29,879 bases of DNA from a virus (IMGVR_UViG_2537562092_000001:1-29879); one strand, 5' to 3'; positions 11,128-11,958 are shown, counted from the first letter of the stretch. Notes: generated from the letters alone by a model not told the origin. Translations and numbers: made by a program.

Positions 11128-11600
11128 CTTGCCCCCTTATTTCCAGACAGGGGTTGTATCTTAAGTTAACATTACCCGCTGACGTCGATATTCTCGCGGA
11201 GAGCGATAACCCAACGCACTATGCGGATGGTTTTCATTGTAATGCTCGATCGCCACTGCAAGGTTATGCAATGCCGTTTTTACATTCGGTTTCGGCATGA
11301 ACGCGATGTAGTCTTCCTTCATCGTTTTCACGAACCGTTCTGCCATTCCATTACTCTGAGGGCTACTGATTGCCGTTGTGCAGGGCTTCAGATTCAGCTC
11401 TCTGGCGAACTGCCGTGTTTCATGCGCTCTGTACGCTTAACCGTTATCTGTCAGCCACTGGATGGACTGTTCCGGTACTTTATCGCCAAAGCGTTTTTCT
11501 ATCGCTCCTAACATCACATCCTGCACTGTCGCTTTATCGTAACTCCGAACCACACGGCAAACAATTCTGAGAGTTAGAGCGAAACAGCAAATGTTGCTGT
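11128..11600 (-). pseudogene. IS2-like (IS3 family) transposase 3' remnant with in-frame stop
   Basis: Minus-strand translation ...YDKATVQDVMLGAIEKRFGDKVPEQSIQWLTDNG*...[56 protein letters not shown] is a diverged homologue of the IS2 InsD C-terminus. A terminal sequence (cccccttatttccagaca) like the IS2 end lies at about 11130-11150. Confidence 0.6.
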
Positions 11601-11958
11601 ATAAAAAATAGTCTTAGCGTGGGAAAATTTCCGAATTCCAAGCTGCCCCCTACGCTGGAAACGCCGAAATTTCCGATACAGCGAATTTGTTGATCTTTGA
11701 AGCATGTTTGGCAGGTTTTAACGTGTACGTTTATGGTGCAGTAAGTGAGAATTTATTCGTACCAGCTATGGATACGTTACGGGCAGTGATTTTTCGCGCC
11801 AGGCAGCTATTTCTTTGCTGTCCGGTTAACGGCGGTCTTACGTACAGGTTGCCGAGCGCAAAATTTGTGCATTCCGGAAATTTCGGTGGTTGCGACTTGG
11901 TACCCCTTTTATTGTTACAGGAGGACTGGGCTTGTCTGCTACCGGTCAGGTGTAGTGG

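Follow-up and report, generated by a model that had tools for sequence, protein, structure and literature searches.

Debris of two nonautonomous Tn3-family derivatives as the probable identity of a noncoding, motif-bearing segment in an Escherichia coli chromosomal island

The window analyzed here (IMGVR_UViG_2537562092_000001, positions 1 to 29879; 29,879 nt) is an Escherichia coli chromosomal island with 100% identity to numerous chromosomes; its contents include an autotransporter gene and a large number of IS fragments. An initial examination (the original prediction) had singled out an unassigned segment (11600-11950) with three copies of a near-palindromic motif, which were thought to be sites for a dimeric DNA-binding protein or recombination sites, in either the relic of an element terminus or a regulatory region whose gene had been lost. 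What is this segment, and where did it come from? Our analysis indicates that 11541-11906 very probably consists of the abutting debris of two nonautonomous Tn3-family derivatives, namely, (i) the end of a resolvase unit and (ii) a miniature element (Table 1).

All of the quoted motif strings were found in the segment, at positions within ±1 of those originally given. The 7-bp inverted repeat acagcaa/ttgctgt was also present, but at 11584-11600, i.e., one base from the reported 11585-11601; it falls within the part composed of the tnpR 3' remnant and spacer. Searching for GGAAATTTCSG with ≤1 mismatch yielded six strand-hits over the 29.9 kb of the window, and the three motif sites accounted for five of these. 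Shuffled sequences contained a mean of 1.15 hits, and none of 100 shuffles reached six; thus, the motif occurs above chance. The segment likewise contains no convincing ORF, as had been proposed: the sole long one (11687-11989; TTG start, 100 codons) crosses element boundaries, and no ORF confined to the 264-bp miniature element described below was found. An Rfam search over 11000-12500 returned no family at E ≤ 1.

Table 1. Features of the segment and its immediate surroundings (window coordinates)
Feature	Position	Strand	Sequence or remarks
3'-terminal remnant of tnpR (serine resolvase) plus short spacer	11541-11612	+	Inner side of Tn3-derived element A
IR-A, solo 38-bp Tn3-family terminal IR	11613-11650	-	Contains motif copy 1; interior to the left
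Motif copy 1	11621-11639		GGGAAAATTTCCGAATTCC
Left IR of 264-bp element, positions 8-38 only	11651-11681	+	Contains motif copy 2; alignment A1
Motif copy 2	11662-11679		CGCCGAAATTTCCGATAC
Miniature-element core	11682-11868	+	No ORF; conserved across genera
res-like block	11720-11846	+	Homology with tnpR-tnpA intergenic DNA in full-length transposons that have the same IRs
Dyad block TGTACG...CGTACC, candidate resolvase subsite(s)	11724-11763	.	tnpR proximal; invariant columns in alignment A2
28-bp dyad TGTCCGGTTAACGGCGGTCTTACGTACA, candidate crossover subsite, site I-like	11819-11846	.	tnpA proximal; suggested by position and length
Imperfect palindrome	11856-11870		gcgcaaaatttgtgc; adjoins inner end of right IR of 264-bp element
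Right IR of 264-bp element, 38 bp, complete tip	11869-11906	-	Contains motif copy 3; pairs with 11659-11675
Motif copy 3	11874-11886		CCGGAAATTTCGG
Plasmid backbone, 44 bp	11907-11950	.	Arrived with the element; right flank common to pSARB26_03
Start of IS3-family element	11951-11975	.	TGTAGTGGT...; pSARB26_03 homology ends at 11950

The three sites are real, but they are not equivalent copies of one motif; they belong to three terminal inverted repeats (IRs) from two different nonautonomous elements. The hallmark of Tn3-family ends is a 38-bp terminus starting with GGGG. A repeat finder reported an inverted repeat (11659-11675 and 11875-11891) with motif copies 2 and 3 as its arms, and these two copies are the mutually inverted arms of a single element, 199 bp apart. 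Motif 2 (CCGAAATTTCCG) and motif 3 (near reverse complement, CCGGAAATTTCGG) occupy positions ~21 to 32 of the IRs of the 264-bp element. Motif copy 1 sits in another type of terminal repeat, IR-A, whose inner portion at the equivalent place reads GGAAAATTTCCGAATTCC (motif 1). Judging from these positions, the three near-palindromic motifs are the inner halves of three 38-bp terminal IRs of the Tn3 family, which are presumably the parts bound by transposase. A scan of the whole window for Tn3-type IRs found none beyond these three.

These placements bear directly on the possibility that the motifs form an operator array for a dimeric transcription factor of a gene since lost. The 12-mers are near-palindromic and clustered, as operators might be. 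However, every motif holds a fixed position in a terminal repeat of 38 bp with a GGGG tip, and two of the motifs form the inverted ends of a mobile unit. These repeats also delimit transposons in numerous genera, in which neither the cargo nor the neighbours are related and no adjacent gene is conserved. An operator array is thus highly improbable, and neither the array of dimeric protein sites nor the regulatory region of a lost gene was borne out.

Of the two derivatives, the left-hand one (element A) is cut on its left side at 11541 by an IS3-family remnant. Its first 72 bp (11541-11612) align at 91% identity with the end of a resolvase gene on plasmid pFY26-1 (locus L129, 4640-4750), whose CDS at 4114-4704 belongs to PF00239 Resolvase (8e-38). 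The remnant frame reads LRTTRQTILRVRAKQQ... in the window versus ...FRTTRQTILRVRAKQQTVTV (then stop) in pFY26-1; a longer reading of the window frame is ...RTTRQTILRVRAKQQ... Directly downstream of the stop codon of this remnant lies IR-A, which reads GGGGGCAGCTTGGAATTCGGAAATTTTCCCACGCTAAG on the minus strand (reverse complement of the window). With its length of 38 bp, GGGG tip, ACG[C/T]TAAG inner end, and location at the end of a unit with a Tn3-family gene (architecture, GGGG...ACGCTAAG), IR-A has the features of a Tn3-family terminus of the Tn21/MITESen1-like type. It matched the IRR of MITESen1 at 30 of 38 positions, the IRL of IMU at 27, and the IRL of TIME244 at 26 (comparison sequences from Table S2 of PMC13367494).

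The counterpart of IR-A in pFY26-1 closes an IR-res-tnpR-IR unit and has its inverted partner IR 852 bp away (unit, 852 bp; IR-palindromes-tnpR-IR). In our reading, 11541-11650 is the right-hand 110 bp of a ~0.85-kb IR-res-tnpR-IR unit, i.e., a resolvase-only Tn3 derivative. This unit is paralleled by TIME-RES (1,186 bp; IR-res-tnpR-IR) reported by Szuplewska et al. (PMC4133298). MITESen1 (256 bp) and IMU (288 bp) have GGGG..TTGGA..TCGGAAAT...ACG.TAAG in common with IR-A; however, IR-A adjoins a resolvase-gene remnant rather than their cores, and homology beyond the IR was not seen in comparisons with these two elements. A second counterpart of IR-A, with one mismatch, was found in pVR50B (locus L001, 7534-7571). 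There, the DNA matching 11613-11653 adjoins istB, which raised the possibility of an IS21 terminus. Yet the end of IS21 reads ...GGCGTTGACA, and the 38 bp that match lie beyond it in pVR50B; they are therefore a target and not an IS21 end. In the window, the tip of IR-A directly adjoins the left IR of the miniature element at position 8 of that IR.

This left IR begins at column 8 of alignment A1 (TACGCTGGAAACGCCGAAATTTCCGATACAG) and lacks the outer 7-bp tip (GGGGTTG); the left IR of intact copies reads GGGGTTGTACGCCGGAAACGCCGAAATTTCCGATACAG. The right IR reads GGGGTACCAAGTCGCAACCACCGAAATTTCCGGAATGC on the minus strand. In total, 256 bp of the 264-bp element (11651-11906) remain. In pVR50B, the element is present as a discrete 264-bp unit (L001, 5994-6257; NZ_CP011136.1, 39513-39776) with perfect 32-bp IRs (GGGGTTGTACGCCGGAAACGCCGAAATTTCCG... 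and ...CGGAAATTTCGGCGTTTCCGGCGTACAACCCC), and intact relatives begin with GGGG, reading GGGGTTGTACGCCGGAAACGCCGAAATTTCCG... at both ends. The size was 263 to 265 bp across 10 instances, with no transposase gene. Conservation was observed in the interior and not at the ends alone (mean column identity over 13 aligned copies, 80%). The core of the window copy was 94% identical to that of pVR50B, 83% to that of the Yersinia phage, and 73% to that of Arsenophonus, and pairwise core identities ranged from ~72% to 94% (pVR50B versus Serratia, 82%). The IRs of the miniature element do not have the ACG[C/T]TAAG inner end found in classical Tn3/Tn21 IRs, and only 16 to 19 of 38 positions are shared with the IRs of Tn3, Tn1000, and IS101. 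On the basis of its IRs and its size, we classify 11651-11906 as a miniature element of the TIME/MITE type; it is a 264-bp IR-core-IR unit with its left IR shorn of the outer 7 bp.

Transposons that might mobilize such an element were found. A pattern scan covering one genome per species detected the exact IR core at 114 loci in Gamma- and Betaproteobacteria. Among the fetched loci, a fuzzy scan for IR pairs delimited units of 228 bp (MITEPsy2-like), 263 to 265 bp, and 0.68 to 0.78 kb, as well as larger units of 1.2 to 5.8 kb and 6.6 to 7.0 kb. The 5.0- to 7.0-kb units encode a Tn3 TnpA (PF01526 DDE_Tnp_Tn3 and PF13700; E ~1e-104 to 1e-109). Five loci (L077, L019, L128, L025, and L034) combine the IR class with a PF01526/PF13700 TnpA, and the first four of them carry the IR class at both ends. 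A PF00239 resolvase is encoded in L077, L128, L025, and L034 and is transcribed divergently in the first three. In addition, L077 carries an uncharacterised passenger ORF and L019 a PAAR protein. TnpA proteins 88 to 93% identical to the Erwinia one are encoded on plasmids of E. coli, Klebsiella, Serratia, and Salmonella, and E. coli IncK2/Z plasmid NZ_CP060058.1 (locus L131) contains a tnpR-tnpA unit with a same-class IR directly after tnpA (one IR found). Autonomous Tn3-family transposons with the same IRs therefore exist and could supply TnpA in trans. Related ends have also been described in the literature: MITEPsy2 of P. syringae (IRR, GGGGTTGTAAGCCGGAACCGCCGAAATTTCCGTC; 5-nt direct repeat [DR]) is described as a derivative of the Tn3-family "effector transposon" ISPsy30 (PMC3189936, PMC3191145), and a 7.1-kb Tn3-family transposon with the same ends is present on an Aeromonas plasmid (PMC6851574).

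Target duplications were present at 2 of ~10 independent 264-bp copies (TATTA in Yersinia phage vB_YpM_39, locus L014; ACAGTT in an Arsenophonus genome, locus L079) and absent at the other 8. A MITEPsy2-like element (locus L018) was flanked by a TATAC duplication, and neither of the full-length units L077 and L019 had a direct repeat. Low DR rates are known elsewhere, i.e., for TIME1-4 (4/18; PMC4133298) and also for MITESen1 (PMC13367494). When the two flanks of the vB_YpM_39 copy were joined and used as an empty-site query, an unbroken 400-bp match was obtained in the sister Yersinia phages vB_YpM_41 and vB_YpM_44 and in 58 E. coli phage-plasmids (~48 kb); in vB_YpM_39 itself, the query matched as two pieces, 269 bp further apart. 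The empty site contains a single TATTA (...ATTTCC TATTA GACATAG...), and the occupied site reads ...ATTTCC TATTA [GGGGTTGCACGCC...GTAGAACCCC] TATTA GACATAG... The phage copy thus inserted in a simple manner and duplicated 5 bp of its target, as Tn3-family transposition predicts. As far as sequence comparison can show, the 264-bp family is therefore mobile; the duplication evidence applies at the level of the family, the left tip of the window copy being gone.

The element is widespread. Positions 11651-11906 matched 432 plasmids, mostly conjugative IncF plasmids, in unannotated or "hypothetical" DNA. The 264-bp element matched 426 PLSDB plasmids, and 206 PLSDB records covered ≥80% of it. A 401-bp window segment including the element had a match in 567 of 5,426 complete E. 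coli genomes (~10%); the match places in E. coli were 567 plasmid and 214 chromosomal, and the exact chromosomal arrangement of the window was found in 189 E. coli genomes. Copies were located on IncF, IncX1, and IncY plasmids, on a phage-plasmid, on chromosomes, and in Serratia and Arsenophonus. Their neighbours were as diverse: one copy was flanked by a lasso-peptide ABC transporter gene and by doc/phd, others lay next to ireA, pqaA, or ISCro1, and one on an IncY plasmid was separated by 3 bp from an IR of the Tn1721 type. Further copies were found on an IncX1 plasmid, on a plasmid of Serratia, and in a Yersinia phage-plasmid. Every copy examined was either unannotated or miscalled as a hypothetical protein or transposase.

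The 256-bp piece might instead be a one-off, in-place internal deletion of an ISPsy30-like transposon, with no propagating family behind it. The origin of the core in the tnpR-tnpA intergenic region of the parents (see below) would fit such an event, as would the series of IR-bounded sizes from 0.23 to 7 kb. What speaks against it is the recurrence of the 263- to 265-bp architecture, with constant breakpoints, in at least 10 unrelated contexts in five genera, together with the number of well-covered PLSDB records and the demonstrable simple insertion of one copy. Moreover, the right IR variant and right flank of the window copy are the same as those of a copy on IncF plasmid pSARB26_03 (97.4% identity over 11683-11950), which indicates that the window copy was imported rather than formed in place. 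We regard a one-off deletion as very unlikely.

The plasmid-derived DNA stops at 11950 because the adjacent IS3-family element cuts it off; in RefSeq, an IS3-family transposase is annotated from the equivalent of window position 11959 onward. From these alignments, the window copy is a plasmid-derived relic between two IS3-family elements. Since it has lost its left tip and the annotation of the surrounding island includes neither a Tn3 TnpA nor a resolvase, this copy is very probably now inert and immobile.

In Tn3-type transposons, the intergenic region between tnpR and tnpA is the res site. Core positions 42 to 166 (~11720-11846) aligned with positions 4107 to 4232 of L077 at 65 to 69% identity (blastn against a database of ~1 Mb; E down to 2e-11), where tnpR starts at 4103 (minus strand) and tnpA starts at 4251. 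The equivalent tnpR-tnpA place matched the core in ~10 other loci, an E. coli plasmid included; for example, intergenic positions 2 to 130 of L131 matched window positions 11720-11846. The ORFs flanking the matched intergenic region are PF00239 Resolvase and PF01526 DDE_Tnp_Tn3. Blastn detected no homology between the core and MITEPsy2-like copies. Given the homology of the core to the tnpR-tnpA intergenic region of the parents, a res site of its own is most likely present in the element.

Within the core, TGTCCG-N16-CG[T/G]ACA was kept in 10 of the 10 sequences of alignment A2, and TGTACG...CGTACC formed invariant columns common to the miniature elements and the parents. A Tn3-family res typically comprises three dyad-symmetric resolvase subsites (I, II, and III), and we propose candidate subsites on the basis of these two dyads (Table 1). 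The element may thus have an IR-res-IR organization in which the core is a working res, and selection for cointegrate resolution would explain why the core is conserved. The idea that the segment was the relic of an element terminus or a recombination site therefore proved essentially sound, in that the motifs lie inside Tn3-family IRs, two of which enclose res-like DNA. The segment aligned with element ends and with the res region of a transposon, instead of with the interior of a known IS. Taken as a whole, the original prediction was partly supported.

A different function for the core and its repeats is conceivable, given that the element has matches in unannotated DNA of hundreds of conjugative, chiefly IncF, plasmids: it could be a Frpo/ssi single-stranded DNA (ssDNA) promoter or priming hairpin, in which a stem-loop in the transferred strand drives early expression (PMC9849209, PMC11541004). 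Frpo1, Frpo2, and ssi (F, ColIb-P9) are likewise long imperfect hairpins of ~300 nt in noncoding DNA of conjugative plasmids; the ~260 to 330 nt of the present segment is comparable to the size of Frpo (PMC9849209), and the intact unit as ssDNA forms one long hairpin (-62.3 kcal/mol; z = -8.7). However, the strong hairpin of the intact copy follows from its 32-bp perfect terminal IRs, and folding of the window copy was not stronger than that of shuffled sequences (z = -1.35 on the plus strand and +0.45 on the minus strand). Blastn against the leading region of F (50 to 68 kb) gave no match, and 5 known plus 16 candidate published sequences are GC rich, with the motif absent from all of them and no sequence similarity to the 264-bp element. 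A promoter/terminator scan gave results at chance, with one weak promoter-like match in duplex DNA and no -35/-10 pair rising above the chance level. The element has no fixed leading-region position or orientation ahead of T-strand-encoded genes: neighbours and the orientation of the downstream gene vary among all loci examined, and copies occur in phage, IncX, IncY, and chromosomal settings. Finally, the 264-bp element, unlike Frpo/ssi, has transposon IRs at its ends and duplicates its target, and a 5-bp duplication with an empty site and transposase-bearing parents are foreign to Frpo. It is therefore extremely unlikely that the segment is of the Frpo/ssi type.

The reading of the segment as Tn3-family debris draws on established biology, since TnpA action in trans, cointegrate formation, 5-bp target duplication, and resolution at res are all known for this family. 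For the 264-bp element, TnpA given in trans would bind the inner IR region and cut at the GGGG tip. Replicative transposition would then produce a cointegrate and a 5-bp target duplication, and resolvase acting at res would resolve the cointegrate.

This kind of element, a Tn3-derived TIME/MITE, is already known, and its IR class is known from MITEPsy2 (228 nt) and its presumed Tn3-family parent ISPsy30 (5,167 bp) of P. syringae/savastanoi. The MITEPsy2 IRR (GGGGTTGTAAGCCGGAACCGCCGAAATTTCCGTC) has two to three differences from the enterobacterial IR in the first 32 positions, and both MITEPsy2 and the 264-bp element are nonautonomous and plasmid associated and generate a 5-nt duplication. They differ in size (228 versus 264 bp), in their cores (unmatched by blastn), and in their hosts (Pseudomonas versus Enterobacterales plasmids). 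IS101 (209 bp; pSC101) and TIME244/MITEEc2 (244 bp) resemble the 264-bp element in their IR-res-IR organization and their occurrence mostly on enterobacterial plasmids (PMC13367494), but IS101 belongs to the Tn3/gamma-delta subgroup and TIME244 to the Tn21/Tn1721 subgroup, and their IRs and cores are unrelated to those of the 264-bp element. The function of res is proven for IS101 only, whereas homology suggests it for the 264-bp element. TIME1 to TIME4 of Pseudomonas (262 bp; IRs like those of Tn5563/Tn5044) are nearly equal in size to the 264-bp element and have 38-bp IRs, AT-rich targets, and 5/6-bp duplications (PMC4133298). Their IR (GGGGTTTGGGGAGCARTGGAACCAA...) nevertheless differs from that of the 264-bp element (GGGGTTGTACGCCGGAAACGCC...), as do their cores, and TIME1-4 were experimentally trapped, whereas the 264-bp element is known from sequence alone.

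We also looked for a catalogued identity, and none of the elements compared (TIME244, IS101, IMU, MITEKpn1, MITESen1, and TIME1-4) is the 264-bp element, which is absent from a 2026 enterobacterial TIME catalogue and from the searched literature. Searching the literature by size and IR strings retrieved only the Pseudomonas MITEPsy2 and Aeromonas transposon papers. Judged on this literature and on the catalogued TIMEs/MITEs compared, the 264-bp element is provisionally considered unnamed in enterobacteria.

For the window itself, these results mean that the segment is ordinary transposon debris marking plasmid-to-chromosome transfer in an IS-rich island and not a mystery regulatory region. The wider relevance lies in the 264-bp family, which occurs in a phage-plasmid and on plasmids, numbering in the hundreds, of E. 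coli, Salmonella, Klebsiella, and Serratia. TIMEs are routinely missed by annotation, yet they can mobilize flanking genes as TIME-COMPs and can supply res sites driving plasmid rearrangement. The family would therefore be a useful entry for ISfinder/TnCentral-type resources and for analyses of plasmid evolution. A more far-reaching suggestion, which we advance tentatively and put at somewhat below an even chance, is that this unnamed, widespread enterobacterial TIME has a working res core and acts as a portable recombination hotspot that could be mobilized by ISPsy30-like transposons residing on the same plasmids. If so, it could rearrange the backbones of IncF plasmids and phage-plasmids, give rise to TIME-COMPs, and bring plasmid DNA into chromosomes, as in this window.

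The 852-bp unit of plasmid pFY26-1, whose spacer includes palindromes such as TGTCCGAAATCGACCGGTTTCGGACA, is a Tn3-family derivative with a resolvase only, and is similar to TIME-RES (IR-res-tnpR-IR) units. Window positions 11541 to 11650, which end in the solo 38-bp terminal inverted repeat (IR) referred to here as IR-A, are the tail end of a unit of this type. Units bounded by the same IR class as the 264-bp Tn3-family miniature element form a graded series from the miniature element to the full transposon, and the L011 unit combines an extra ORF with the core of the 264-bp element. 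The passengers of two parent transposons (one an 898-aa protein without a Pfam match) are in keeping with reports of ISPsy30 as an "effector transposon".

Related units, transposon passengers, and IS3-family neighbors of the window copy
Feature	Locus	Coordinates	Strand	Details
Resolvase-only unit	L129 (pFY26-1, NZ_CP101742.1)	3899-4750		852 bp; IR, palindrome-rich spacer, serine resolvase gene, IR
Units, 0.68-0.78 kb, IR class of 264-bp element at ends	L011	2504-3179
	L080	3822-4519
	L021	54-824
	L026	2753-3534
Units, 1.2-5.7 kb, same IR class at ends	L025, L098, L128
Passenger gene, 898-aa protein	L077	752-3448	(-)	Within Erwinia transposon of 6,958 bp
Passenger gene, PAAR-motif protein	L019	4563-5147		Parent-transposon cargo
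IS3-family (integrase-core) pseudogene	Window			Truncated; one side of plasmid-derived 410 bp
IS3-family element	Window			Frameshifted; other side of plasmid-derived 410 bp

JBJENW010000264.1 carries the 264-bp element twice (L036 211-474 and 6725-6988), as identical, directly oriented copies that are separated by 6.5 kb and have identical flanks. This pair is either a TIME-COMP-like structure (an arrangement in which TIMEs can mobilize flanking genes) or a segmental duplication. The contig belongs to a "Lachnospiraceae" MAG, a bin that looks wrong for an enterobacterial-type element.

In pVR50B, the inner edge of an IR-A copy (L001 7531-7571) is directly abutted by an inserted IS21. A flank of ~40 bp, AAATAAA[T/C]TCAATTAATTAC..AAGGTGAGACTTTT, follows both this copy and the 264-bp element (in the latter case at 6258-6300), which points to a backbone module that is repeated, or else to a preferred target.

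IS3-family DNA borders the plasmid-derived 410 bp of the window on both sides (11161-11541 and 11951 onward), and fragments of IS3, IS30, IS66, IS21, and IS4 make up a mosaic across the wider island (NZ_CP021726.1 annotation). The full chromosomal arrangement was present at 100% identity in only one PLSDB "plasmid" (CP088535.1 26331-26721; 41 kb, E. coli from blood), which may be a chromosomal fragment deposited under a plasmid label or an excised island.

On an S. Typhi IncY plasmid (L005 4975-5000), 3 bp separate a 264-bp copy from the tip of a Tn1721-type IR, GGGGAGCCCGCAGAATTCGGAAAAAATCGTA. The miniature element of the window is likewise in direct contact with another Tn3-family IR. Tn3-type ends may cluster.
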